Shown here: positions 8,754-60,096 of the stretch, piece by piece
Layout: each line of letters starts with the position of its first letter
Numbering within the stretch: the first letter of the stretch is position 1
Virus record (IMG/VR): IMGVR_UViG_3300031965_000005
Coordinates: 1 to 64,000 of that record
Strand: one strand, 5' to 3'
Source: a virus
DNA: 64,000 nucleotides
Program-made: the position numbers and the translations under genes
The notes under the pieces: model-generated
What the model was told of the DNA's origin: nothing
The model's input: the letters and a program-made list of their open reading frames with translations, nothing else
The model's database searches: none

Positions 8754-9848
8754 TTATACTTCCGCCCAATCTAAAGAAACGGTGCATTCAGTATTATTAG
8801 TGGTAGGTAATACAGAAAACAATATACTGTTGCCAGGCAATATTTGCAGCGTATTTGCCTCTTCCACTGTAAACACACCCGCTACTACTACGCTAATACT
8901 CACTTGAGTACCGAAGCTGGTAACAGTAGGAGATGTAAACAACTGCACGATAGATGTATTAGCATCACCAATTCTCTTATTTACAGGTGTTTGAGATGTT
9001 CCATTTGCAGTTACAATTGGATTCGTATATAGCCTGAAGGTTGTAGGTTTATTAGTTGAGACAACCCCCTCAACCATGTTTCTAAGTTTCAAGGTCTTTC
9101 CACTTCCTGCAGGGTTTACAAGATATACGAAAGATAATTCTGTACCACCAGTACCGAAATTAGTTTGGGGGGCTGAGTATAGGAAAGCTTGCCCCAAATC
9201 TGCAAAGTTTTCAAATTCTAATGCTGCCGATACTTTTAATCTGCCAGTGGGGGTAGCTTGCACATTAATGAATTGCCCATCATCCGCGCCGGACAATACC
9301 GCCTTTACTAATTCGGCATCAGCTTCTTTAGAAAGAGTATCCCCAATCCTATGTGAAGATGGTTTCCCACTAAAGGGATGTAAGATGGTCTGTAGACGGA
9401 ATACCCCCTGTGGAGTTGCTCCATTTATATATCTAATACGAAAGTACCGCGCCACAGAACCAAAACTATATAATTTATTTGCCTCATTTAATGGGTCATA
9501 GGAAAACGTATCATTAGAGTCCCAATTAGTTCCATCCTGCGACCACTCAATAATAAAACCCGATGCCGCAGATGATTGATCCGAAAACAAAAAAACCGAT
9601 AAATGCGCGTAGTCTTTAATCTCTTCAGCAGTTCCGGTAAAGGTGCCACCAGCCCCAAGTGGAGTAGTGGTAGAATTACTTGTAGATATTTTTGCGGCGC
9701 TAAACGCAATTACTGCCCCATCGGTAGTTGTTAGTAAATTACGTTTCAATCCGCTGGAATCTACACCACCTATTAACGCGGGATTCTCAGTTGTTGCTTC
9801 TCCTGTGGGAGATTTCCCATCTATGGAAGACGTATTATATAAAGGCAT
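8754..9848 (-). CDS. virion protein, paralog of 9848..11338 (shared RxRYxNGATPQ domain)
   Basis: Start trimmed to MPLYNTSS (TAATG junction at 9846-9850). Contains FSDQSSAASGFIIEWSQDG...ARYFRIRYINGATPQGVFRLQTILHP. Confidence 0.55.
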   Translation of the reverse strand: MPLYNTSSIDGKSPTGEATTENPALIGGVDSSGLKRNLLTTTDGAVIAFSAAKISTSNSTTTPLGAGGTFTGTAEEIKDYAHLSVFLFSDQSSAASGFIIEWSQDGTNWDSNDTFSYDPLNEANKLYSFGSVARYFRIRYINGATPQGVFRLQTILHPFSGKPSSHRIGDTLSKEADAELVKAVLSGADDGQFINVQATPTGRLKVSAALEFENFADLGQAFLYSAPQTNFGTGGTELSFVYLVNPAGSGKTLKLRNMVEGVVSTNKPTTFRLYTNPIVTANGTSQTPVNKRIGDANTSIVQLFTSPTVTSFGTQVSISVVVAGVFTVEEANTLQILPGNSILFSVLPTTNNTECTVSLDWAEV

Positions 9849-17149: not shown

Positions 17150-17470
17150 TTACTTAGATAAGTCTGGATCTTCTTCAAGACCAAGCCGACGCCTATCGGC
17201 ATTTGACATTACATTCCCCACCTTTATATCGTCTCCAATGAAAAATCTACTGCCTCCCCCAGCGTCACCTAGAGAATCCTTCTTAAATCTAATGTTAGGA
17301 TTATTGATTTGACATTCAAAGATCGAACCATCTTCGTGATGGACATTAAAAGTCTTATCTCCCGTCCTCTCCATCTTAGTGGGCTGAGTATTACCTTTCT
17401 TTAACTTTTTACTTGCCCAGACCTCTTGACCTTTGTTAATAACTGTCTTGGGGGTAATAATATTGCTCAT
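17150..17470 (-). CDS. hypothetical protein
   Basis: 106 aa. ATGA overlap with the MuF gene. Confidence 0.55.
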   Translation of the reverse strand: MSNIITPKTVINKGQEVWASKKLKKGNTQPTKMERTGDKTFNVHHEDGSIFECQINNPNIRFKKDSLGDAGGGSRFFIGDDIKVGNVMSNADRRRLGLEEDPDLSK

Positions 17471-20028
17471 CTTGAGGGTTTTTCTTTATATTTAAAGTCT
17501 AATTGATATTTCGTATTACCTAATTTAGAATAAAAATCTGCAGCTTCAGGAGCTTCTTTCATCTCAGAGACCTTGGCATACTCTGACGGCCTCTTATCAG
17601 CATATCTCATCTCTGCAATGCCGTCTCGCATGACAATAACAGATTCCTGATTCCCTTCTGAAGGACTTAGAGCGAAATCCACAGCGGCATCTAAGTCTAC
17701 ATCACTTTTGGGAGTTGCGATGTAGCTACGTTCTTTAGTGCCATATTGCCCCTCTTGCATAACTAAGTCATCAGATAGGTTTTGCAATACCCTCTTAGCG
17801 GCAATACTTCTTCTATAATTTTCTTCTGGTCTGAGGTTACCTCTCTCCCCTGACATAATGAGGCGAGTTCCTGTCGATAGATGCTCTTTAATTCCCTCAA
17901 AAGTTTCTAATTTTTGTGGAACTGAAGTCTCTGGGGTATCTTCTCCAATATCCGCCCCACCGCCGCCACCGGAAGTGAATTTCCCCGATTCATCTCTAAG
18001 ATGTTCTTCTTCTCGAAACTCTGCTTTAATTAATTCATGTGCCACAGGTTTCTTAGCATCTCGGCTGTATACCCAATCTTTAAATGGTTTTATGTCCATC
18101 TCACTGAGAGCGCCCAGACCTTGCCACCCTTTGTCATAGTTGGACAAGTATCCCTCTCTGGCGGCCTTTGCATCTTTAAATCCCAACAAGACCTTGTGTT
18201 CGTCAAATTGTCCAGTATCTGGCTTGATCTGGTCAATAACAAAGACTTTCTCGCTTTCCAAATCAGATCCCAAAAAGACATCTACTTGCTCTTTATCCCC
18301 GCCCTCAGTCTGTTTAATATACCCGTAGTGATTATTTAGCTTAGTAGACCACTTATTTCCATTTCTATCTATTCCTGACCTCACTGAACCTTTAGGATTC
18401 TCGATCGAAATATCTAAGCCATGAATGTGCACATGACCCTTTTTATAATTGCCATTTTCTTTCTGATTCTCAGTCGGAATTTCTACTTCACTGGCGGCTT
18501 CTTCAATTCTCGCCTTCGTATCTGCTTTATGTACAGAGTTCAAATGCTGCTTGAGTTCCTCGTACGTAGCCTTCCAATCACCATCAAATCTAACAGCTTT
18601 ATCATCAACATATGCGGCAGCTAGGGGCTTCCCTGGATTCGCCCCAACAGGTTGTCTCGGATTGTAGTTTATGTAATCATAAATGATACCATGATACTTA
18701 AGATGATCTGCAATATCTTTCCTATTGCCCCTTACTGTATGGATTATGATTGTATATCCTTCTTCTTTCAACTTTGCTACCACTTCAGAAGCACCTGAAA
18801 TGGGATCTCCTAATACATTTATGTCATCGGTTATTTGCAAGATCGTACCATCTAAATCTATCGCTACTACCTTTGATTGATCAATAGATTCTCTCTTTAC
18901 TAGACTTGGAGATTCTACAAACTTATCGAGTCCTGGTTGACCATTCCAAAAGTCTGAAAGACTATCAGGCAAAGGAGCAGGTTCCCATAATTCTATGCAT
19001 CTACAATTTGAACGACATTGATTGGTGCCAGCTTCCATTCGAAATTGTGTAATGGTCATCCATTTGGCGTCATTATTCTCACACCCTTCACAGACTCCAT
19101 CATCATGCCTGGTATGCCAGTATCCTCCCATCAAAACTACACCAACGGGCAGTCCGGTTTCCCGATCTAGTTTGGGTTCCCCCGTTGGTTCTCCAGTCTC
19201 TGGATCAATTTCCTGGACATCTTTAATAGCTTGGCCTGTGCCTGCTGCAAGTAATACACTACCGAGAGCAGCAGCAAATTTAGGCAATCTATATGATTCT
19301 TTATTGTGGGCTTCTTCTACGGCTTGAAACAGTTTCTCAGGAGATTCATACTCTGCTTCTAAAGCTTTCTCGTAATCAGAGAATGCATCGCCCACTAGAA
19401 CTGCGAGAAATAACTCATTCCAATTCTCTTTCTCTTCTAAGATTTCCCTATCAACATCTGACAGGTCATCACTAATCTCTTGATCTGTCATAATCTGTCC
19501 ACGCTGCTTGCCAAGTTTGTATGCATCTTCGAATAGGGGCTTAGCGGCTCCCTTAAGCTCCTCTTTCATTTCTTCGAGCTTAGGTTTCAAAATTTCATTC
19601 TTTTTGGCCTTTAAATATCGAGCCATAAGCAACTTTCGCCGTGTCGAATCTTTCTCGGCTCTGACTTGAGCAAGAGTAGGGATAGCTAATATGGCAAGAG
19701 AGACTCGATCCTTCTCTTCTTCTTTATTATCTTCTTGTTTCTCCACTGTCTCTGGTAAGTCCTCTGCTTGGACTATACGCGAAATTTCTCGCCGATATCG
19801 ATCCCAAATGGATTTCATACGTTTGGTATATTTGTCAATGAGCTTGTCTACTTTCTTACCAATTTTAACTGGAACATTACGCTTGCGCATCGCCCCCAAG
19901 TATTCGCCACTAAACTCAATAGATTCTACTAACGGATAGGACTTGGTAGACGTTACAAAGGTCACTTTATCATTATATATCTTCCTCAGCTTTTCGATAG
20001 GCTGAGGCTCATCTAGTACAATTTTCAT
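17467..20028 (-). CDS. MuF/SPP1 gp7-like head morphogenesis polyvalent protein (MuF + HAD-like + pyrophosphatase-like + unknown C-terminal domain)
   Basis: 853 aa, directly after portal. MuF hallmark: GGYWHTRHDDGVCEGCENND...CRSNCRCIE (aa ~300-346). HAD-type: VVAIDLDGTI...IIIHTVRG...YVDDKAV (aa ~386-480). PPase-like: SIENPKGSVRSG...YGYIKQTEGGDKEQVDVFLG (aa ~540-590). Linker: EEHLRDESGKFTSGGGGG. Confidence 0.7.
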   Translation of the reverse strand: MKIVLDEPQPIEKLRKIYNDKVTFVTSTKSYPLVESIEFSGEYLGAMRKRNVPVKIGKKVDKLIDKYTKRMKSIWDRYRREISRIVQAEDLPETVEKQEDNKEEEKDRVSLAILAIPTLAQVRAEKDSTRRKLLMARYLKAKKNEILKPKLEEMKEELKGAAKPLFEDAYKLGKQRGQIMTDQEISDDLSDVDREILEEKENWNELFLAVLVGDAFSDYEKALEAEYESPEKLFQAVEEAHNKESYRLPKFAAALGSVLLAAGTGQAIKDVQEIDPETGEPTGEPKLDRETGLPVGVVLMGGYWHTRHDDGVCEGCENNDAKWMTITQFRMEAGTNQCRSNCRCIELWEPAPLPDSLSDFWNGQPGLDKFVESPSLVKRESIDQSKVVAIDLDGTILQITDDINVLGDPISGASEVVAKLKEEGYTIIIHTVRGNRKDIADHLKYHGIIYDYINYNPRQPVGANPGKPLAAAYVDDKAVRFDGDWKATYEELKQHLNSVHKADTKARIEEAASEVEIPTENQKENGNYKKGHVHIHGLDISIENPKGSVRSGIDRNGNKWSTKLNNHYGYIKQTEGGDKEQVDVFLGSDLESEKVFVIDQIKPDTGQFDEHKVLLGFKDAKAAREGYLSNYDKGWQGLGALSEMDIKPFKDWVYSRDAKKPVAHELIKAEFREEEHLRDESGKFTSGGGGGADIGEDTPETSVPQKLETFEGIKEHLSTGTRLIMSGERGNLRPEENYRRSIAAKRVLQNLSDDLVMQEGQYGTKERSYIATPKSDVDLDAAVDFALSPSEGNQESVIVMRDGIAEMRYADKRPSEYAKVSEMKEAPEAADFYSKLGNTKYQLDFKYKEKPSR

Positions 20029-34187: not shown

Positions 34188-34202
34188 TATTATCTTCCCA
34201 TA

Positions 34203-34256
34203 AAGCAAAAGCCGAGAGCAACTAGTCATACTTCCGACTGGTCACCCTCGGCTCTC
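34203..34256 (-). terminator. intrinsic-terminator-like hairpin closing the early/accessory operon
   Basis: On the minus strand: GAGAGCCGAG ... CTCGGCTTTTGCTTT (6 GC-rich bp plus A-U/G-U extensions, then a U-tract). It sits in one of the very few intergenic regions. Confidence 0.45.
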
Positions 34257-34292
34257 TCGCCGCTGAGGACGCTTGCTTAAGTTATACTATCT

Positions 34293-34400
34293 TCAATCTT
34301 TGTTTATATACATAAATATCTTTACAGCCAAAGCAAAGCCTATGCCGACACTGACAATCGCCAGAATGGTGGTAAACGCAGCTTCAAGATATTCCAACAT
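34293..34400 (-). CDS. 35-aa single-TM peptide (below track cutoff)
   Basis: GGAG lies 6 nt upstream. My translation is MLEYLEAAFTTILAIVSVGIGFALAVKIFMYINKD. Confidence 0.35.
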   Translation of the reverse strand: MLEYLEAAFTTILAIVSVGIGFALAVKIFMYINKD

Positions 34401-34576
34401 CACATACTCCTAATTGTGCACAAGACGAAACTGGACAACCCATAAAAGAACATTAGTAGCGCCAACTTCGTATCCCCTTTCATTAAATAAATACAAGTTG
34501 CACTAATCTCTAATACCCCAATGCTAAACACGAACCAATTTGCAATATACATTTGTAGATCTCTTTCTATTCTTTA

Positions 34577-34747
34577 TTAACAGTTCTTATTTTTCACGTA
34601 TTCTTTGACCCTCATACCATCCAGTCTATTTGCTTGAATAACAAATTCAACCGTACAAAAGCTCTCTCTGTTGACCTTTTCTCTGTGAGCTTCTATAAAC
34701 TGAATTATCTGATCAGCTACACTAATTTTGTCGGTTAATGATTTCAT
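34577..34747 (-). CDS. 56-aa hypothetical protein (below track cutoff)
   Basis: My translation is MKSLTDKISVADQIIQFIEAHREKVNRESF.... Confidence 0.35.
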   Translation of the reverse strand: MKSLTDKISVADQIIQFIEAHREKVNRESFCTVEFVIQANRLDGMRVKEYVKNKNC

Positions 34748-34764: not shown

Positions 34765-35076
34765 TCAAGATTTATCAGACTTGGAAGATTCCTTTTTGGA
34801 GCCCAATCTGGCCAAAGTCTCTAAGGCGGCCTTCGTTTGCTCCTTACTCAGTCTATAGCTGCCCTCAAATGCTTTATAGAGTTGAGCTATGACTCCTTTT
34901 AGATTTGAACAATAAATACGTATGATTCCAGACTTTAAAGTGTGTCCTTCAACAACGTAACCATTGGACAATCTCTTAATAGTAAGTTGATCCGCCGATT
35001 CTCTTAAAATGGAAAATATGGGAGAATCATTTTGAACAGCAAATTGCTTGTGTGATTCATCACTGAAAGTGGTCAT
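34765..35076 (-). CDS. hypothetical cytoplasmic protein translationally coupled to the protease gene
   Basis: 103 aa. ATGA overlap with the stop of 35073..35873. No signal peptide. Confidence 0.5.
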   Translation of the reverse strand: MTTFSDESHKQFAVQNDSPIFSILRESADQLTIKRLSNGYVVEGHTLKSGIIRIYCSNLKGVIAQLYKAFEGSYRLSKEQTKAALETLARLGSKKESSKSDKS

Positions 35077-35873
35077 CGATTACCTCCACTGGATGCTCCG
35101 GAGAAAGCTAACAACAAAGCTGCTTCCTTTACAGATATAGCAAAGTTCATCCCGACATTGCTGCCCGTATTTGTGATCTGAGATAGTATAATTCCCAAAA
35201 GCTCGCCATTTGTATTTACAAGGGCTCCCCCACTTGAGCCTGGATTAACCATGGCATCAATTTGTATGAGACTTTCGACATAAAGAGAACTTGATCCATC
35301 AGAGGATCCTTCCCGCAGAAACCATCCTTTTGGCTGTATATTACTGTCATCGCCGTATTCCCCATCTTCCAATTTTCTTGGCTCCCTAATGGCTCTATTT
35401 ACTCCACTAACAATTCCCTTAGATACTGAAGCTTCATCTCTAGTGCCTTGGATCATATTAGAAGCTGGAAATCCCAAAGCCAATATTTCTTCACCCCGTA
35501 AAGGCTCTCTCTTAGAGACTGCTATTGGAGTAAGTCTCTTACATTGCGCCTTAATCAAAGCAATATCTCTATGCGCATCGGCTACATAAAATAAAGCGGG
35601 GCAAACTGTGCCGGTAGATGTTTTAACGAATACATGGGCGGCTCCAGTAATATTATGTTTCGCAGTCAATATATAACCATTAGCTGACACCACCACTCCG
35701 CTGCCTACCGTACTTACCTCCATAGTGCCTGTAGCCACACCCACTTGCACTATTGAAGGAGTAATTCGATCTACCATTTTCTCCAGCCGTCCTTCCTCTG
35801 CCGCAAAGGCTGAAGAAGACAAAAGCGAAATTTGTACTCCTAGTAATATGAGGCAAAATCTTCTACTCATCAT
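35073..35873 (-). CDS. secreted trypsin-like serine protease (S1C/HtrA-like catalytic domain, no PDZ)
   Basis: Signal peptide MMSRRFCLILLGVQISLLSSSAFA/AE. Catalytic triad contexts: ILTAKHNI, DIALIK and NPGSSGGALV. Confidence 0.75.
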   Translation of the reverse strand: MMSRRFCLILLGVQISLLSSSAFAAEEGRLEKMVDRITPSIVQVGVATGTMEVSTVGSGVVVSANGYILTAKHNITGAAHVFVKTSTGTVCPALFYVADAHRDIALIKAQCKRLTPIAVSKREPLRGEEILALGFPASNMIQGTRDEASVSKGIVSGVNRAIREPRKLEDGEYGDDSNIQPKGWFLREGSSDGSSSLYVESLIQIDAMVNPGSSGGALVNTNGELLGIILSQITNTGSNVGMNFAISVKEAALLLAFSGASSGGNR

Positions 35874-36492
35874 ACACTCCTATGTAATGAGGTGATGATA
35901 GGCTCCAGTCCCGAATTACTACATATCTGACTTCTGGATAGACAGTTAGAACTAGCTTCTTTATAGCCTCATGTGATGATACATTATCTTCCACAATTTG
36001 CCATTCCCCATTAACGTCAGCTAACACCCACTGGCTCCCATTATGATATACTGCAATAGCATGTCCAGAATCTAGAAGCCCAAGAGCCACGAAATAAGAC
36101 TCATAATCCTTGCGCCCCGAAATATAAGCTATGAGTCGAGCATAATCATCACAGTCCCCCTCCATCTCAGCGAATGCCACTAAAGGATGATCAGCTATAT
36201 CAAGCCATCCATCATTAGCATATATCCAGTTGGAATCGACAAAATCCGTCAAATCTTCGATGGAGAAGTCGTGTATGATTGCATCAAATCTACGGTGCAA
36301 AGAATTGGATAACACAAATTTATGAAGTGTATCATTCATGATGTAGAGCACTATTCGTGCTTTGTCACAGAAGATAAACTGCGCAAGCCCATCAGTCCTC
36401 AGCCAAACAAACAAAGTACCGTTTACTGCGCTACTTAGTAATAGAGCTATCGCAAGTGTTTGTAATCTTACCTTCCACCAAGGAAGCTTCAT
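35863..36492 (-). CDS. signal-anchored transglutaminase-like / papain-fold cysteine peptidase
   Basis: N-terminal hydrophobic anchor LQTLAIALLLSSAV. Cys-His-Asp contexts: EGDCDDYARLIAYI, SGHAIAVY and VLADVNG. Confidence 0.6.
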   Translation of the reverse strand: MKLPWWKVRLQTLAIALLLSSAVNGTLFVWLRTDGLAQFIFCDKARIVLYIMNDTLHKFVLSNSLHRRFDAIIHDFSIEDLTDFVDSNWIYANDGWLDIADHPLVAFAEMEGDCDDYARLIAYISGRKDYESYFVALGLLDSGHAIAVYHNGSQWVLADVNGEWQIVEDNVSSHEAIKKLVLTVYPEVRYVVIRDWSLSSPHYIGVYDE

Positions 36493-36763
36493 CTTTTCGC
36501 GATGCTCTCCTATATACGTTCACCAAAATCATAGAACCTACACCTGATCCTAATGCATATGCTATTATAACCCAGAAGTTCTGCAGATTCTCAAAGACTA
36601 TCCGCAATACTAAATAAACAATAGCAACATAAATGAAGCCATTTATCCCACTAATTAGTGCTTGCCCCTTAGCAATTGTTTTAGTATGCCATGCACTAAT
36701 AAAATCTTCGATCATACCCACAAAGAACAAAATCACGCATAACATAGCAAGCTCGGAACTCAT
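36431..36763 (-). CDS. small polytopic membrane protein (UPF0316/DUF2179 N-terminal-like)
   Basis: 110 aa with 3 TM helices. ...NFWVIIAYALGSGVGSMI resembles the UPF0316 membrane domain. Confidence 0.4.
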   Translation of the reverse strand: MSSELAMLCVILFFVGMIEDFISAWHTKTIAKGQALISGINGFIYVAIVYLVLRIVFENLQNFWVIIAYALGSGVGSMILVNVYRRASRKDEASLVEGKITNTCDSSITK

Positions 36764-37341
36764 TGCTTATCTACCCCAACTAACCTCTTCCCATAAGTAC
36801 TTTCAAGAAATTCCATTAGATCATTCCAACTTCTAAAAATCTTACCGTGACGCCTAACAACTCTCAAAATCCAGTAACTCCATTCTGAGAGAGGATCATA
36901 GCTGACTACATACACAGGCACTTGCGAATGGAGGACTGCCTCCCAAATTTCGCAAATCGTACCTGTCGATTTAACATTTGGCTTCATTAGTGCAATTACA
37001 AAATCGGATTCCCTCACCAATCTGACATCACGATCAATTAACAGATCGACATAATGATCAAATTTCTCCCAATCTTCATTTCTCACACACTCCTCTATCA
37101 TGTCTTTCACAGACACCGGATCACCTAACTCTTTAGCTTCATAGATAGTAGGATCAAGCACTTCAATATTAAGGTTCGTCAGGAAGCTAGTTAGCCTTCT
37201 TCGCCATTCTACTCCACCATCATTAGTGTCTTGGATGGGGCCAGCTAGATAAACTTTGAGTGGGCGATTAACCAACTCTTCAGGAGTCTTAAGTTTCGGC
37301 ATGCTACCACCACTATCCATTAAAATTTTTCTATCTGACAT
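36760..37341 (-). CDS. nucleoside 2-deoxyribosyltransferase-like protein
   Basis: 193 aa. KVYLAGPIQD and STGTICEIWEA are typical of the NDT/Rcl-like family. Confidence 0.6.
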   Translation of the reverse strand: MSDRKILMDSGGSMPKLKTPEELVNRPLKVYLAGPIQDTNDGGVEWRRRLTSFLTNLNIEVLDPTIYEAKELGDPVSVKDMIEECVRNEDWEKFDHYVDLLIDRDVRLVRESDFVIALMKPNVKSTGTICEIWEAVLHSQVPVYVVSYDPLSEWSYWILRVVRRHGKIFRSWNDLMEFLESTYGKRLVGVDKQ

Positions 37342-37353
37342 TTAGTTTACCTC

Positions 37354-37932
37354 CTATGCAATAGGGTAAACATCACCGTTTCTCTCTATTGCTTCATCCT
37401 CATATGGTGCAACATACTTGCGATAATATTCACGTTTACATTCTTTCAGCACTGAAAGAGCTTCATAATGGTCTGTAGGATCTACTACATCTCCATAGAC
37501 TCCTACCAAAAATCGAGTAATCACATAATTAACTACTCCACATTTCTTCTCTACAAGAGAGATATTATGGTTAATCTTTCGAGCTATGGATTCTATCCTA
37601 ACATCGACTAGATCACGAAGGCTTATATCTACATCGGGATAAATAGCAAACCGATCATAGATCTTCTGGGTTTTGTCTATACCTACCGTTCGGCGTTTGT
37701 ATTCTTGCCTTGCACATTCTAGTATGCCCATGACCTCATTGTATTCAGAATAATTTTTAGGGGCATATGCATCGGTCAATATCTTGAGAATAATGTAAGC
37801 AGATACTCCCATACGGTGTTCCATCAGAAGGAGATTCCACTTGACCCACTCTATTAAGTCATTTAGTGGTGCATCGATTAATTGTCGTCGATCCGTGTCT
37901 ATATATGGCATTGAGAAAAGATTCCTGCCCAC
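37354..37932 (-). CDS. hypothetical protein with an internal two-fold repeat
   Basis: The two halves share GVxxYxIxxxLxxxY...YxExxxxLxECxxEYxR. Confidence 0.5.
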   Translation of the reverse strand: MGRNLFSMPYIDTDRRQLIDAPLNDLIEWVKWNLLLMEHRMGVSAYIILKILTDAYAPKNYSEYNEVMGILECARQEYKRRTVGIDKTQKIYDRFAIYPDVDISLRDLVDVRIESIARKINHNISLVEKKCGVVNYVITRFLVGVYGDVVDPTDHYEALSVLKECKREYYRKYVAPYEDEAIERNGDVYPIA

Positions 37933-40733: not shown

Positions 40734-40897
40734 CTTGCTCCAGATAATCCACTTATATCAACATTAAGCGGATCAATTTCTAAATATTCTCCACAGTTTA
40801 TGCAATTTAAGATGGCAATATCTCCAGACGGGGCTCTTATGATGGATAGAACAACGAGATCGATGGACTGACAATAGGAACAATTAGCTTCTTGCAT
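40730..40897 (-). CDS. small zinc-ribbon protein coupled to sbcC
   Basis: Start trimmed to MQEANCSYC (GGGAG RBS). Contains CSYC...CINCG. ATGA overlap with sbcC. Confidence 0.45.
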   Translation of the reverse strand: MQEANCSYCQSIDLVVLSIIRAPSGDIAILNCINCGEYLEIDPLNVDISGLSGAS

Positions 40898-41155
40898 CCC
40901 GATCTCCCTTGTTTGTGTTAGGATGGCTCTGGGTTGCTCGTTCATGAAGCGATGCCGCCAATTTTCGCAGTAATCTCGCTATATTGTCAGTCGCTTCACG
41001 TTCCCATTTCATACTTCCAACTTGGTAATAACGATATGAAATTGCTTTGTCAAGTAAATATGCACTCGCTTGTTCTAAGCCAATACTTATACCAACTCTA
41101 TACGCTTCATCCAAATCTTCCTCAGTTATTTCATCTTCTGTAGTGTTAGTCATAT
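40880..41155. repeat. segmental duplication, copy A (~275 bp)
   Basis: Aligns by eye with 41888-42155 over its full length, with long identical runs such as GATGCCGCCAATTTTCGCA and AATCTCGCTATATTGTCA. Confidence 0.75.
40884..41153 (-). CDS. duplicated small protein, copy A
   Basis: Start trimmed to MTNTTEDEITEEDL. Ends ...NIARLLRKLAASLHERATQSHPNT. Paralog of 41891..42154. Confidence 0.5.
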   Translation of the reverse strand: MTNTTEDEITEEDLDEAYRVGISIGLEQASAYLLDKAISYRYYQVGSMKWEREATDNIARLLRKLAASLHERATQSHPNTNKGDRDARS

Positions 41156-41344
41156 TGCCTTTTGCTCCCCATCTTCTGCAGGACTCCGTACCCAAATTTC
41201 ATTTCCATCTTCATCGATTATGGCAATTTCATATTGATCCTTTATCGAGTTCAGCCTATACTTATAGCATGGCTCAGGAAATGGACTTCGTAAACGCACA
41301 GCCCTACACCATATCTCCTGCGAATTTGCCTCAAGTGCTGACAT
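41150..41344 (-). CDS. hypothetical protein
   Basis: 64 aa. ATGA overlap. Confidence 0.5.
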   Translation of the reverse strand: MSALEANSQEIWCRAVRLRSPFPEPCYKYRLNSIKDQYEIAIIDEDGNEIWVRSPAEDGEQKAI

Positions 41345-41887: not shown

Positions 41888-42155
41888 CAATTAACTTCTT
41901 GCATTCCGATCTTCCTTGTGCGTGTTGGGGTGACACTGAGTGGCTCGTTCATGGAGAGATGCCGCCAATTTTCGCAACAATCTCGCTATATTGTCAATCT
42001 CTGTGCATCTTATATCGTCATCACCAAGCTCGAAGTAAGAAATTGCTTTGTCAAGTAAATATTTACTCGCTTGTTTTAAACCACTACTTATACCGACACC
42101 ATATGCTCTGTCCAAATCTGCCTCAGTTATTTCATCTTCTGCATCATTAGTCATA
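41888..42155. repeat. segmental duplication, copy B
   Basis: See copy A. It also retains an 18-codon remnant of the zinc-ribbon gene start (MQEVNWTKNVLQERATER). Confidence 0.75.
41891..42154 (-). CDS. duplicated small protein, copy B
   Basis: MTNDAEDEITEADL...NIARLLRKLAASLHERATQCHPNT. Confidence 0.5.
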   Translation of the reverse strand: MTNDAEDEITEADLDRAYGVGISSGLKQASKYLLDKAISYFELGDDDIRCTEIDNIARLLRKLAASLHERATQCHPNTHKEDRNARS

Positions 42156-48408: not shown

Positions 48409-48701
48409 TTTCGAAAGATACCTTTCCCTTTCTTAGCTTGTTCTCGCGTATCGAGCTCAGTTACAATTGAGCGAACTATATTGTTGATCAGTAAATTCTG
48501 AGAGGCCATATGTACCATATGCTCTAATTGCCCATTCTTCTTGATATTGGCGTTGGGAAACATAGAAAAGTCATTAGTGACTGGATCTAACACTAAAGTC
48601 AATGCCCATAGCCTCTTCTGACGTTCTTCCGCTTCCAATTGCTCTTTCGTCTTATCTTCTACCCGTTCTTTTTCTACTCGCTCAGCAAATTCATCACTCA
48701 T
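48405..48701 (-). CDS. hypothetical protein
   Basis: 98 aa. Confidence 0.5.
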   Translation of the reverse strand: MSDEFAERVEKERVEDKTKEQLEAEERQKRLWALTLVLDPVTNDFSMFPNANIKKNGQLEHMVHMASQNLLINNIVRSIVTELDTREQAKKGKGIFRK

Positions 48702-49489
48702 TCCCCAATCCTCCTTTTAGCCTTCCTATGTTGTCTAACTCTCTCATAATTGTTCAATGTCGCCAATATCAACCTAGCTCCACCTGCTGTTCTGTTAGTC
48801 CCATAGGTCTTTCCTGGGATTTCTAATGTGATCGAATATGGAGCCCCTCTCTTTTCGAACATATTTTCCTCAATAGTATGCTCCTTTTTACTAGTAACGA
48901 CTCCCCCTTCACATTTCTCTTTATAGACTGTCTGTGCATCGTAGATATCAAAGTAATTTAATACATCATTCAACGCCAAAGCCGCCAACGATGGAGAATC
49001 CGGCAATTTTCTTTCGTATGCATAGACTTCATACCTATCAACATCACCATGTACATCTACAAATAGATCTATCTTAGGCGGTATATTTTTGAATATCAAA
49101 CTCAATTCATTTGTTGGCCTTAATCCTACTTTCCAATTACTTCCTTTTCTCTCGCCGTTGAGTCTAGAGGAATAGGAGTAGCCAAAAGGATTGGCACAAG
49201 GAAAAATCCAGAGGTTAAACATATCAGTGTCTATATCATTTAAAGCGTAGAGTAAAGAATCAATACCATACCACTCGTCACCATGAAATCCCGCAGTAAT
49301 GACCGCATTGTATTTAGCTGTCTTTTCCTCACTTCTCAACAATAAGAAGGGATATCCCTCTCGATTCGCGCCATACACTAAAGTGGATAGTATTTTCACA
49401 GAAAAATCGGCCTTGGCTGCTTCAGCTAATATAACATTGACTAATTTCAAATAATCTTTGGGTTGCTGTTGATTAATGTCTTTAGTCAT
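48698..49489 (-). CDS. M14-type zinc carboxypeptidase-like protein (AstE/AspA or MpaA-like)
   Basis: 263 aa. Zn ligand contexts AGFHGDEWYG and VDVHGD, with a distal YSITLEIPG glutamate. Confidence 0.55.
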   Translation of the reverse strand: MTKDINQQQPKDYLKLVNVILAEAAKADFSVKILSTLVYGANREGYPFLLLRSEEKTAKYNAVITAGFHGDEWYGIDSLLYALNDIDTDMFNLWIFPCANPFGYSYSSRLNGERKGSNWKVGLRPTNELSLIFKNIPPKIDLFVDVHGDVDRYEVYAYERKLPDSPSLAALALNDVLNYFDIYDAQTVYKEKCEGGVVTSKKEHTIEENMFEKRGAPYSITLEIPGKTYGTNRTAGGARLILATLNNYERVRQHRKAKRRIGE

Positions 49490-57477: not shown

Positions 57478-60096
57478 TCATAGACTTTGAGAATGTTCAA
57501 GTATCTGATCTTTAGATAGTGGCTTCATACTACCAAAGGATTGGCCAACCTTTACTTCAGCTTCTATAGGTATGTTAAACCCTGGAATCGGCTTCGTGGC
57601 CTCTCGGTACATAATTTGAGCTACTTTGTGTGATAACTCTGTAAGACATTCTGCCACAATGGAATCATGCACAGTCAAAAGCAATCTAGCCGCCGGAACT
57701 GAATTGGTAAAGGCTTTCCTAATACGGTTCATAGTAATGAATAATATGTCTGCTTCTAAACCTTGAATGGGGGCGTTAATAGCACTCCTCTCCGCATGCC
57801 CCCTAATCTTCCTATCTGGTGCCACTATATCTTGTAGCCGCCGCCGTCTTCCAAACAAATTAGTAACGAACCCATGTGATCTAGCACTGAGAATCATCCG
57901 GTTGTTATACTCACGAGCCAACGGATGTATTGAATACCATCTGTCCAACAACCTCATAGCTCTATCTTCATCTATCTTGAAATGCTGAGCTATCTTCCAA
58001 TGTGAGGCTCCCATAATAACAGCATAAGTAAACGCTTTAGCCGCTTGGCGCTCTTCCTTAGTAACCGACTCCGAAGATTTATTGAATATTACAGAAGCAT
58101 TTAATCTATGGATATCTTGTCCTGTTTCCAGAGCTTCCTTCATTCGCAAGTCACCCACATAGAAAGCCCAAATTCTATATTGAATTTGTGAGAAATCTAA
58201 CTCAATTAGCGAACTGCCTTCAGGTGATATAAATATATCCCTTGCCCTACTGGCTATTGTCGCTTCTCCTGTGTCCATATCTGATTCCATACGAGGAATG
58301 TTCTGTAGATTCGGATTTCTACTAGATAATCTCCCGACTTCTGTTCCATGCATAAGTAATTTCGTATGTATTCTTCCATCACTCTTAATGAAAGATTCAA
58401 AGTTGCTTCCGTATGCCGATACCAAATGCTCGTATGACCTCTTCTGCATAATCAATTTAGGAATGTCATGCATTCTCGCTAGTTCTTTTAATGTGGCTTC
58501 ATCAGTAGATGATTTACCTGTCTTCGTGGTCTTGACTGGTTTTAATTTTAAAATGTCAAACAATATACGCCGCAACTGAACGGGAGATCCCCAATTTACT
58601 TCTTCGACCTCAAGTAATTCCTTTGCTTCAGCATTACACGGGTGAGACCGCAATTGGATATCAATATCTGCTGCCGCCTTCTCATATTCAGATCGGATAT
58701 TCCTCAGTTTATCGACATCTATTTTTACTCCGTTCCATTCCATCTCACACAGGGTATTTTGTGCGGGCATAACAATTCTTTTAAATAATGGAATTAGACC
58801 TTCTTTCTCCAACTGTTTGTGGAAAATTCGTCTCAATCTACCTGTCGCATCTACATCAGCCGCAGCATAAGGCCAGATCACACTAAAGGGAATCTTAGAA
58901 AAGTCTACCGTTTTCTTAGAGTAAGCGGGCTTTACTTCTCCCTTACCTCTACAGCTTCCACATATCGCACCACTACCAGATATTTCCCCCGTGCCGCCAC
59001 AAGCAGTACATGGTTCATTAGTGACAATCAGCTTATTCTTCCATTCTTCTATCTCAGCATCATAAAGACCTAAATCAGTATATTCAAGAGCCAATTCCTT
59101 CAAACCATGACTTTTCGCGTTCTCATTCAGTAGATAGTGCATAATCAAAGTATCACAGGCGAAATTCTTTACACGAATGCCAACTTTTCTCAAAAACTGA
59201 ACATCGAAAGAGCCCATATGTGCAGACTTGGGGATATCCGATTCAAAGAATCCTTTCAATCGATCTATGACGGTTTGATGTTTATCTCCCCAATATAGTT
59301 TACCCCCTACCAACAAGGGAACAACATATGATTCAGCTTCTGCTGGAGACAGAGCTACACACATTATCTCATGAGTGTCATAATTCAGCCCTGTAGTTTC
59401 AAGGTCAAAATCTACAATTGGAGCATTGAACAATCTACACATCAGAGCTTCAAATCCCTCAGTTGAATCTACCAATGTATAATGAGTCGGAGTTCTCTTC
59501 ACCTCCAAAGAACCAGTTTCTACATATGTTTTGGCAGTAGAGAGGTCTTTGATTAATTGCTCTTTAAATCTCACTTTAGAATCTCCTATACTATGCAATA
59601 TATAAGAAGGATGATACGTAGGTAGCAATTTGCATCCCAATACTTGATCGGTAGTTATCAACCCTCTCGCTCTAGTGATACCAGACTTACCTGAAAATAC
59701 CTTGAGAGCAACTGCGCCTAATAAAATTATCAGCTTCGGCTGGACATCCTGCATTTCTTTAATGAGGAAAGGAACATAATCTGTGATCTCCTTGTGAGTC
59801 GGGGGTCTATTTTCTACACCTCTGGAAGTCTCCAAGGTAGGTCTAAATTTCACCACATTGGTAATGTACACATTATCTCTGTTTATACCCGCCCCCTTTA
59901 GGCATTCTGATAATAATGCTCCAGCCGGACCGACAAATGGCTTACCTTGACGCGATTCCTCTGCTCCTGGAGCCTCACCGATAATCATAATCTCTGCCGG
60001 AGTTGATCCTACACCTGGAACAAATCCGACCCCCGTCCTATCACAGTTTGCACCTTCGGGATATTTTTCAATAAGCTTATGCAACAAAGAAACCAT
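57478..60096 (-). CDS. polA: family A DNA polymerase with N-terminal UDG-like domain and 3'-5' exonuclease
   Basis: UDG family 4/5-like: IIGEAPGAEE, FVGPAGALL, YHPSY. Exonuclease: DFDLETTGL, SFDVQFL, YAAADVD. Polymerase: LIELDFSQIQYRI (A), RQAAKAFTYAVIMG (B), LTVHDSIVAE (C). Confidence 0.85.
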   Translation of the reverse strand: MVSLLHKLIEKYPEGANCDRTGVGFVPGVGSTPAEIMIIGEAPGAEESRQGKPFVGPAGALLSECLKGAGINRDNVYITNVVKFRPTLETSRGVENRPPTHKEITDYVPFLIKEMQDVQPKLIILLGAVALKVFSGKSGITRARGLITTDQVLGCKLLPTYHPSYILHSIGDSKVRFKEQLIKDLSTAKTYVETGSLEVKRTPTHYTLVDSTEGFEALMCRLFNAPIVDFDLETTGLNYDTHEIMCVALSPAEAESYVVPLLVGGKLYWGDKHQTVIDRLKGFFESDIPKSAHMGSFDVQFLRKVGIRVKNFACDTLIMHYLLNENAKSHGLKELALEYTDLGLYDAEIEEWKNKLIVTNEPCTACGGTGEISGSGAICGSCRGKGEVKPAYSKKTVDFSKIPFSVIWPYAAADVDATGRLRRIFHKQLEKEGLIPLFKRIVMPAQNTLCEMEWNGVKIDVDKLRNIRSEYEKAAADIDIQLRSHPCNAEAKELLEVEEVNWGSPVQLRRILFDILKLKPVKTTKTGKSSTDEATLKELARMHDIPKLIMQKRSYEHLVSAYGSNFESFIKSDGRIHTKLLMHGTEVGRLSSRNPNLQNIPRMESDMDTGEATIASRARDIFISPEGSSLIELDFSQIQYRIWAFYVGDLRMKEALETGQDIHRLNASVIFNKSSESVTKEERQAAKAFTYAVIMGASHWKIAQHFKIDEDRAMRLLDRWYSIHPLAREYNNRMILSARSHGFVTNLFGRRRRLQDIVAPDRKIRGHAERSAINAPIQGLEADILFITMNRIRKAFTNSVPAARLLLTVHDSIVAECLTELSHKVAQIMYREATKPIPGFNIPIEAEVKVGQSFGSMKPLSKDQILEHSQSL

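Follow-up and report, generated by a model that had tools for sequence, protein, structure and literature searches.

The cysteine peptidase LapG cleaves the adhesin LapA in the periplasm (PMC4241560, PMC3032545), and the Caulobacter BTLCP HvyA prevents capsulation and thereby alters phage sensitivity (PMC4241560). Genes for BTLCPs (Peptidase C93, the family of LapG) are also carried by phages, and in viruses from river water they were reported as the most frequent 'auxiliary' gene (PMC11283719). The DNA analyzed here, called the window throughout, is a stretch of 64,000 nt (positions 1–64,000) of the record IMGVR_UViG_3300031965_000005, the genome of an uncultured phage of about 94 kb. At positions 34765-37341 its minus strand carries five overlapping genes, designated g1 to g5, of which g3 and g4 encode a putative LapG-like cysteine peptidase and a putative HtrA-type serine protease, both predicted to be exported. 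Judging by the sequences, this exported protease pair is real, looks catalytically competent and is kept by selection.

The river-water BTLCPs, found in single-virus genomes, resemble g3 in that they belong to uncultured phages and that their function, surface modification or a role in biofilm, was only deduced; they were recognized by standard annotation, whereas the g3 family was not (PMC11283719). The HtrA family (DegS, DegP and DegQ; MEROPS S1C) shares with g4 the chymotrypsin fold, the H/D/S triad, the signal peptide and the periplasmic destination, but g4 has no PDZ domain and about 40 additional aa are inserted between its two barrels. DegS, DegQ and DegP, the relatives that suggest by analogy what g4 may do, are protein-directed periplasmic proteases which degrade or cleave envelope proteins. 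A third comparison concerns PeiW and PeiP, the pseudomurein endoisopeptidases of methanogen (pro)phages. These are also transglutaminase-fold cysteine peptidases and gave weak fold matches to g3 (E 0.03–0.07), but they act on archaeal pseudomurein and carry wall-binding repeats, whereas the phage described here encodes bacterial-type RecA, DnaB/DnaG and PolA.

The putative exported peptidases g3 and g4

The g3 gene (35863-36492, minus strand, 209 aa) had been described in a preliminary reading of the sequence as coding for a signal-anchored cysteine peptidase of the transglutaminase/papain fold, and this was borne out by the invariant Cys and His and by LapG as the top match in profile and Foldseek searches. 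Alone, the g3 protein gave no Pfam match at E ≤ 0.1 and no PDB match, a word-indexed protein search returned only g3 itself, and an exhaustive HMMER search of 1.84 billion proteins revealed only 32 representatives of the family. In the family alignment of 29 members, G112, D113, C114, D116 and H144 were invariant and D115 was present in at least 90%. The motif around the Cys reads GDCDDYA and His144 is the catalytic candidate. The likely third residue of the triad is D162, located 18 residues past the His; Asp is found here in most close members, and distant members have other residues, often Asn, near this position.

The family profile matched the LapG chains 4u65_E (1.3e-5) and 4fgo (4.1e-5), representing LapG of Pseudomonas fluorescens and Legionella, with GDCDDYA of g3 aligned on GDCEDYA of both chains and the Cys and His in register. 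An AlphaFold (AF2) model built on the family alignment reached a pLDDT of 95.2. Its top Foldseek matches were the LapG structures 4fgq and 4fgp (6e-5), followed by the Cytophaga putative cysteine protease 3isr and the CPR-C4 protease (probability 1.0, TM-scores 0.33–0.44); PNGase, vasohibins and pseudomurein endoisopeptidases were placed lower. Among the 29 members, contacts with Pfam were noticed for DUF553 (19), Transglut_core (14) and Peptidase_C93 (PF06035; seven members, best E 9e-4). Since g3 itself has no Pfam match and only these seven relatives match PF06035, weakly, g3 is best placed as a distant superfamily relative outside C93 proper.

The N-terminus of g3 contains one hydrophobic helix (residues 13–31, KD 1.94), which predicts export, and anchors, lipobox-like or AXA leaders were found in its homologues, the last two in distant relatives. 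Taken from sequence and model together, g3 is predicted to be a type-II membrane-anchored LapG/BTLCP-like cysteine peptidase of the transglutaminase fold. With LapG it shares the transglutaminase/papain-like fold, the Cys-His-Asp order, the G-D-C-(E/D)-D-Y-A motif and the extracytoplasmic location, the last being a prediction for g3; the positions of the acidic residues flanking the Cys, which form the calcium site of LapG, also appear to be kept. The two proteins differ in that LapG is soluble in the periplasm, whereas g3 is anchored by a transmembrane (TM) helix and encoded by a phage; the identity is 14–16% with a TM-score of 0.36–0.44, and neither a LapD-like receptor nor a LapA-like adhesin was in view.

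The g4 gene (35073-35873, minus strand, 266 aa) had been assigned to signal-peptide S1 proteases, in agreement with its match to Trypsin_2 at 2.1e-24 and to the structures of DegS, DegQ and DegP at ~6e-19. Its leader MMSRRFCLILLGVQISLLSSSAFA, followed by AEE, has the form of a Sec-type signal peptide with an AFA/AE cleavage site. H72, D102 and S213 (P0002 numbering) were invariant in 18 members of the g4 clade and the triad was aligned with that of DegS; hydrophobic N-termini and a common clade-specific insert of ~40 residues were present in all 18. Loss of catalytic residues on careful alignment had been named beforehand as a check on both enzymes, and the residues were invariant, not lost, in both protease families.

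The g4 product is predicted to be a secreted S1C (HtrA/DegS-like) protease domain without PDZ. No PDZ match was obtained in Pfam and the protein stops about 15 residues past the protease domain, whereas the cellular relatives matched by g4 bear PDZ domains of PF13180, PF00595 or PF17820. Because of the missing PDZ domain, g4 is probably unregulated. Its best NCBIfam matches were the DegS and Do models; the degP_htrA_DO model scored 111 bits against a cut-off of 416 bits, and all curated HtrA models remained far below their cut-offs.

The preliminary description had also held that an exported protease is not standard phage equipment. In line with this, the g3/g4 clade was absent from 50,697 GenBank phage records: tblastn with g4 met nothing but bacterial DegP/DegS in records that are mislabelled or contaminated, tblastn with g3 had no match, and blastn of the region against the same records gave zero matches. 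Scans of metagenomes and genomes with the S1 alignment returned nearly exclusively cellular HtrA genes and one added phage locus, L011. A relation of g4 to anti-phage defence proteases (RT-Protease, LmuA, Avs1b) was considered and rejected, as the PADLOC matches span the protease domain only. A cytoplasmic defence protease was set aside as well, g4 having a secretion leader and no reverse transcriptase (RT), STAND or Lamassu partner nearby.

The gene block and its conservation in related phages

The remaining genes of the block are g1 (36760-37341, 193 aa), g2 (36431-36763, 110 aa) and g5 (34765-35076, 103 aa), all on the minus strand, which carries all substantial open reading frames (ORFs) of the window; this segment of the genome is one-stranded and tightly packed. 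As first described, the five ORFs are chained by overlaps, which in the sequence amount to 4 nt (ATGA) for g1/g2, 62 nt for g2/g3, 11 nt for g3/g4 and 4 nt (ATGA) for g4/g5. Shine-Dalgarno-like sequences (AGGAGG, GGAG, GGAGG) were found upstream of g1, g4 and g5.

Related contigs of ~95–105 kb, originating from groundwater and other metagenomes, were found via the g4 clade; their loci are given L numbers below. The order g1-g2-g3-g4 was colinear in six of them (L004, L007, L008, L009, L010 and L011), whose contigs reach up to ~98 kb, with 27–60% identity (tblastn and HMM). Homologues of all five genes followed in the same order in L004, L007, L008, L010 and L011; in L009, g1 to g4 passed the tblastn cut-off and g5 was represented by a weak alignment at the equivalent position. 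The g5 homologue came directly after the protease gene in L004, L007, L008 and L011, and two small ORFs lay between them in L010. The flanks were the same in all six loci, with SbcC, exonuclease and DUF6899 genes upstream and g9 and a 603-aa gene downstream. Homologues in the same order argue that g1 to g5 are real genes, and the colinearity in six related loci speaks for a conserved block and against an accessory one, if accessory means variable. The earlier term 'accessory five-gene operon' did not hold: the position of the genes is conserved across the lineage, they are embedded in a string of about 14 genes, and g1 probably belongs with nucleotide-metabolism genes.

Other relatives carried parts of the block. 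In L001–L003, g1, a small ORF and g2 directly precede g4, g5 and g6, and g3 is missing. L177 contains g1, g2, an unrelated 123-aa ORF and g4, with neither g3 nor g5. In the much more distant L173, NDT-like, transglutaminase-like and signal-anchored Trypsin_2 genes were located within ~3.5 kb and no g5 was present. L176 has DeoC beside an NDT-like gene, followed by a transglutaminase-like gene. Wherever g2 was present, g4 was found together with it.

The g2 product had been called a UPF0316-like protein with three TM segments, which was upheld by a match to DUF5698 above the Pfam threshold (33.2 bits versus 27.5; residues 30–79, single copy), by three hydrophobic segments and by weak matches to the PRK04164 (UPF0316) models (18–30 bits versus cut-offs of 160–351). 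It is predicted to reside in the inner membrane and ends in a basic C-terminal tail. UPF0316 proteins consist of tandem DUF5698 and a C-terminal DUF2179, whereas g2 has one DUF5698 and no DUF2179 was detected in it by the Pfam scan. The literature searched offered no account of DUF5698, no functional work on UPF0316 and no paper on phage HtrA or lysis. In the main clade and in L002/L003, g2 stands directly before the S1 gene or g3. The C-terminal extension of g2 (36431-36492) overlaps the start of g3 by the 62 nt in another frame. In L010 the two genes overlap by 53 nt, in L011 by 14 nt, and in the others by at most 8 nt or not at all; because of these differences the extension seems lineage-specific.

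Four of the five protein families originally proposed, those of g2 to g5, found support. The fifth, a nucleoside 2-deoxyribosyltransferase (NDT) for g1, was supported weakly and below the Pfam threshold: PF15891 scored 28.1 bits (cut-off 30) and PF05014 24.6 bits (cut-off 28.8). The g1 family profile matched the NDT structure 7m5h at E = 0.008, with the invariant E131 of the GGTxxE motif aligned to the NDT Glu, so that g1 may be weakly assigned to the NDT superfamily. No TM segments were found and the protein is predicted to be cytoplasmic. A g1 homologue adjoins DeoC in L176, and g1 lies upstream of the module in every case. The NDT-type Glu motif, the adjacency of DeoC and the Mom-like genes nearby in L177 make it most likely that g1 is a distinct enzyme of nucleotide metabolism, translationally coupled by chance. 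The Mom-like genes, two adjacent ones at 8576-9981 of L177 after an AAA ATPase gene, hint at DNA modification in the lineage.

The g5 protein was correctly described as cytoplasmic and ATGA-coupled, since it has no signal peptide and the coupling to g4 was confirmed in the sequence. It is basic (pI 9.4); no match was found in Pfam, PHROG, PADLOC or NCBIfam, and a word-indexed search returned only g5 itself. A 70-aa ORF after the protease gene of L004 is 43% identical to it, and a core of ~50 aa is conserved in eight loci. A single-sequence AF2 model of g5 (pLDDT 56) was too poor for a structure search.

Three small ORFs on the minus strand lie between g5 and the hairpin described below. The first, g6 (34577-34747, 56 aa), encodes a conserved small protein of the same gene string, with no match in Pfam, PHROG, PADLOC or NCBIfam and homologues in L001, L004, L007, L008, L009 and L011 (E 1e-9 to 1e-16). 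In most homologous loci g6 follows an AAA ATPase gene that is not in the window, and in L001 it comes directly after a small basic ORF. The next two, g7 (34400-34552, 50 aa, two hydrophobic segments) and g8 (34293-34403, ~35 aa, one hydrophobic segment), are linked by TGATG, the start of g8 overlapping the stop of g7; no conservation of either was detected by tblastn in related loci. The interval between g5 and g6 holds additional genes in relatives (L004 7040-8860; L008 7307-9110; L009 6987-8933; L010 7438-9407), all absent from the window: a small basic protein with the motif RIKIRKxWxRNP in most of them, an MgtC- or DUF202-type membrane protein in several, and an AAA ATPase of 450–467 aa in the longer loci.

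The string of about 14 genes runs from about 40.9 kb to 34.3 kb and opens with recombination genes; encoded at its start are an SbcC-like ATPase, an RNase H-fold exonuclease and a DUF6899 protein. No intergenic gap of at least 40 nt occurs from about 41.3 kb to 34.3 kb; as no such gap separates them from the genes upstream and three ORFs follow downstream, g1 to g5 appear to be the distal part of a longer string and not a self-contained operon. The string ends just before the g9/terminase block with a terminator-like hairpin on the minus strand (34196-34269, core stem ~34209-34254, then UUUUGCUUU), located in the sole intergenic gap of at least 40 nt between 41.3 kb and 30.3 kb. The hairpin had been reported before and proved sound, with a folding energy of -37.9 kcal/mol, z = -3.1 and the U-run UUUUGCUUU after the stem; the stem is long and bulged and was therefore overlooked by a simple terminator scanner. 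Stem-loops with a U-run, unrelated in sequence, are located just before the g9-like gene in four relatives (L004 ~9060-9100, L008 ~9545-9590, L009 ~9543-9580 and L011 ~9150-9190). Because of these equivalents, the terminator is regarded as a conserved feature of genome architecture which would mark a transcription-unit boundary of the lineage.

Beyond the hairpin, g9 is sigma-r4-like and the adjoining 603-aa gene encodes the large terminase, TerL, with 27–29% identity to Streptomyces phage terminases. No shared promoter motif was found across 19 intergenic regions, a sigma-70 scan scored no higher than shuffled controls, and a tRNA scan of the window gave zero genes. Directly upstream of g1, g0 (37354-37932, minus strand) carries DUF6899 duplicated in tandem (two matched stretches); in several relatives the counterpart has one copy and ~95 aa.

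Possible roles of the module in envelope remodelling, lysis and other processes

Based on the observed gene structure, export signals, catalytic residues, folds, conservation and genome position, the reading tentatively favoured is that a middle-expressed module remodels proteins of the host envelope by proteolysis. What is cut, when, and how the phage would benefit is what we infer from these observations. The core of the module would consist of g2, g3, g4 and probably g5, directed at the host envelope and transcribed with recombination and nucleotide-metabolism genes, ahead of the terminator that precedes the packaging genes. The g4 protease would be exported via its cleavable Sec-type leader as a free HtrA-type enzyme, and g3 would be inserted in the cytoplasmic membrane by its single N-terminal TM helix, with the Cys-His-Asp peptidase domain outside the cytoplasm and g2 as a small three-TM partner in the same membrane. 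Together, g3 and g4 may cut envelope proteins in mid-infection; adhesins, receptors, the machinery of surface polymers and periplasmic regulators are candidates. As a result, the infected cell would change its surface; for example, shedding of a receptor or adhesin could exclude superinfection or avoid trapping of progeny.

Envelope remodelling is favoured because the nearest characterized relatives of both enzymes cut periplasmic proteins, because the genes group with middle-type genes ahead of the conserved terminator, upstream of TerL, and because BTLCP genes are already on record as frequent auxiliary genes of phages (PMC11283719). Dissolution of the wall by g3 and g4 is not favoured. No positive tie of the proteases to peptidoglycan was found, and neither g3 nor g4 matched any peptidoglycan-hydrolase family in Pfam, PHROGs or NCBIfam. 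On the whole, the evidence leans slightly to host surface proteins over the cell wall.

Several points weigh against this assignment. The likeness of g3 to LapG lies at the level of fold and motif only, at the identity and TM-score given above; g3 and g5 are dispensable in some lineages, so the module is perhaps looser than proposed; and the timing of expression is read from the gene order and a predicted terminator only. Moreover, no canonical endolysin was found in the ~84 of 94 kb covered by the search, in which most late ORFs are unannotated, and this leaves room for a lytic role. The tail-end 10 kb of a relative (L180) likewise contained no endolysin recognizable by Pfam.

The search for an endolysin combined PHROGs for all ORFs from 1 to 30.7 kb, Pfam for the upstream half and for every ORF of at least 100 aa in 12.8–33.7 kb, and precomputed Pfam matches for the remaining window and 10 kb past each end, taken from a contig of 93.7 kb that is nearly identical. 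Among window ORFs of at least 100 aa and in the two 10-kb flanks, none of the families lysozyme, amidase, M15, CHAP and NlpC was detected. The preliminary observation that the 64 kb lack a canonical endolysin agrees with this, as no endolysin family of Pfam or PHROG was found there. Apart from g3 and g4, the window contains a single peptidase-like candidate for a wall-directed enzyme, a 263-aa M14-type zinc peptidase-like protein encoded amid replication genes (48698-49489, minus strand). It matched Peptidase_M14 at 27.4 bits, above the threshold, the PDB entries 2qvp, 3ieh and 3b2y and, weakly, MpaA and N-acetylornithine-deacetylase. It was rejected as the missing endolysin, having no export signal and resembling AstE/AspA-type M14 proteins, not wall hydrolases. 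Another protein, of 853 aa, is encoded beside the portal gene (17467-20028, minus strand) and looks like a polyvalent virion or ejected protein, with a strong match to the 'InPase' domain (PF18823, 1.6e-56), one to a HAD/phosphoheptose-isomerase-like PHROG and a weakly S-AdoMet-lyase-like C-terminus. The 'endolysin' label it received from PHROG (phrog_938) spans only this shared domain.

An unconventional lysis cassette is considered unlikely. In such a system g2 would be holin-like, g3 would act as a tethered wall peptidase comparable to PeiP/PeiW, and g4 would stand in place of spanins, attacking wall-to-outer-membrane tethers or envelope proteins. The missing endolysin families in the regions searched are consistent with it, although the reach of that search and the many ORFs without annotation speak on the other side. 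The block lies just upstream of the terminase genes, the place of the lysis genes in lambdoid phages, but its genes are upstream of the terminator that precedes the late genes. With ~100 aa, three TM segments and a basic tail, g2 resembles class I holins; however, DUF5698/UPF0316 is a cellular family of housekeeping type with a conserved polar motif, unlike holins, and outside this scenario g2 was set aside as a holin for that reason. PeiP and PeiW gave weak fold matches to g3 (E about 0.06; psiM2 PeiP 0.03), and we know of no other precedent for a transglutaminase-fold cysteine peptidase as a phage lytic enzyme. Against this, g3 is absent from the L001–L003 lineage and from L177 while g4 persists. 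The anchor of g3 is also an ordinary, strongly hydrophobic TM segment, unlike signal-arrest-release (SAR) segments, which are weakly hydrophobic and rich in Gly, Ala, Ser and Thr; the fraction of these residues, a heuristic and not a validated SAR predictor, is 0.37 in g3 and 0.11–0.42 in homologues. No HtrA-family enzyme is known to us to cut peptidoglycan, which also counts against lysis. The broader notion of a lineage devoid of a conventional endolysin, which escapes by proteolysis of wall cross-links or envelope protein tethers from the periplasmic side, with the tethered g3 and the secreted g4 as the enzymes and g2 as their helper, is rather doubtful.

It is also rather improbable that the five genes are merely unrelated neighbours held together by lineage synteny and tight packing. 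In a one-stranded, tightly packed genome overlaps are common, g1 looks like a gene of nucleotide metabolism, g3 and g5 come and go, and relatives have AAA ATPase and membrane protein genes inserted within the string. However, three of the four proteins remaining besides g1 are predicted to be envelope-targeted, and the DUF5698 protein and the S1 protease stay together in the L002 and L177 lineages. Moreover, in the distant L173 a transglutaminase-like gene and a Trypsin_2 gene are again found together, although their neighbours are rearranged.

A takeover of envelope proteostasis or stress signalling is quite improbable. Here the PDZ-less g4 would work as a constitutively active DegS or DegP with g3 as an accessory, clearing misfolded envelope proteins or cleaving an RseA-type anti-sigma factor and thereby reprogramming host transcription. 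Deletion of PDZ de-represses DegS, the top structural relatives of g4 by sequence are DegS protease domains, the DegS and Do models are its best NCBIfam matches, and g4 is the most constant exported component across lineages. On the other hand, the family models score far below their cut-offs, the domain is a generic S1C one with the clade-specific insert, nothing points to a host anti-sigma target, and the LapG-like partner is left unexplained.

A protease with its inhibitor, chaperone or immunity protein, in which the precursor of g4 would be bound by g5 in the cytoplasm, or g4 be neutralized by it in another way, and both together would act as a toxin-like effector, is very improbable: the ATGA coupling and the g5 homologues after the protease in L001, L004, L006, L007, L008 and L011 (two small ORFs intervene in L010 and L009 offers a weak alignment only) speak for it, but g5 has no signal peptide, so that contact with the exported g4 could occur only before secretion, it is missing in L177 and L173 although both have the protease, and it shows no similarity to inhibitor families in Pfam, PHROG, PADLOC or NCBIfam, its model being unreliable.

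Other genes of the genome and meaning of the module

Some further features were noticed apart from the module. Two paralogous small ORFs (41891-42154 and 40884-41195, minus strand), ~1 kb apart, have common N-terminal (...EDEITExDLDxAY...) and C-terminal (...NIARLLRKLAASLHERATQ.HPNT...) halves. A family A DNA polymerase (57478-60096, minus strand) is fused to an N-terminal domain of the uracil-DNA-glycosylase (UDG) superfamily, in the order UDG (6e-35), 3'-5' exonuclease, polymerase. Upstream of the window, the early region of the same genome (L172) holds genes for a peptide deformylase bearing a SEC-C motif, for adenylosuccinate synthase, for a Gad2-like protein and for a protein with pentapeptide repeats.

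The superfamily of each component is already known, and phage BTLCP genes have been described. Three features appear to be new: g3 as a highly divergent family, the conserved combination of this family with an exported HtrA-type protease lacking PDZ and with a DUF5698 protein, and the fixed place of these genes in an uncultured ~95-kb phage lineage without a counterpart among the GenBank phage records. No report of the pairing of a BTLCP with an exported HtrA-like protease and a DUF5698 protein was found in PMC11283719 or in the other literature searched. The practical value is limited for now, as no cultured phage carries the module. The g3 family constitutes a very small, previously unrecognized LapG-like branch, whose confident model gives clear residues to mutate.

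Phages alter the surface of the infected cell almost always by small blocking proteins or glycan-modifying enzymes, and a conserved pair of apparently active proteases in the host envelope would represent a different strategy. If the lytic reading were true, the module would provide a new route of phage escape and a type of lysis system new to tailed bacteriophages. If receptors or adhesins are shed, it would amount to proteolytic superinfection exclusion or biofilm release.

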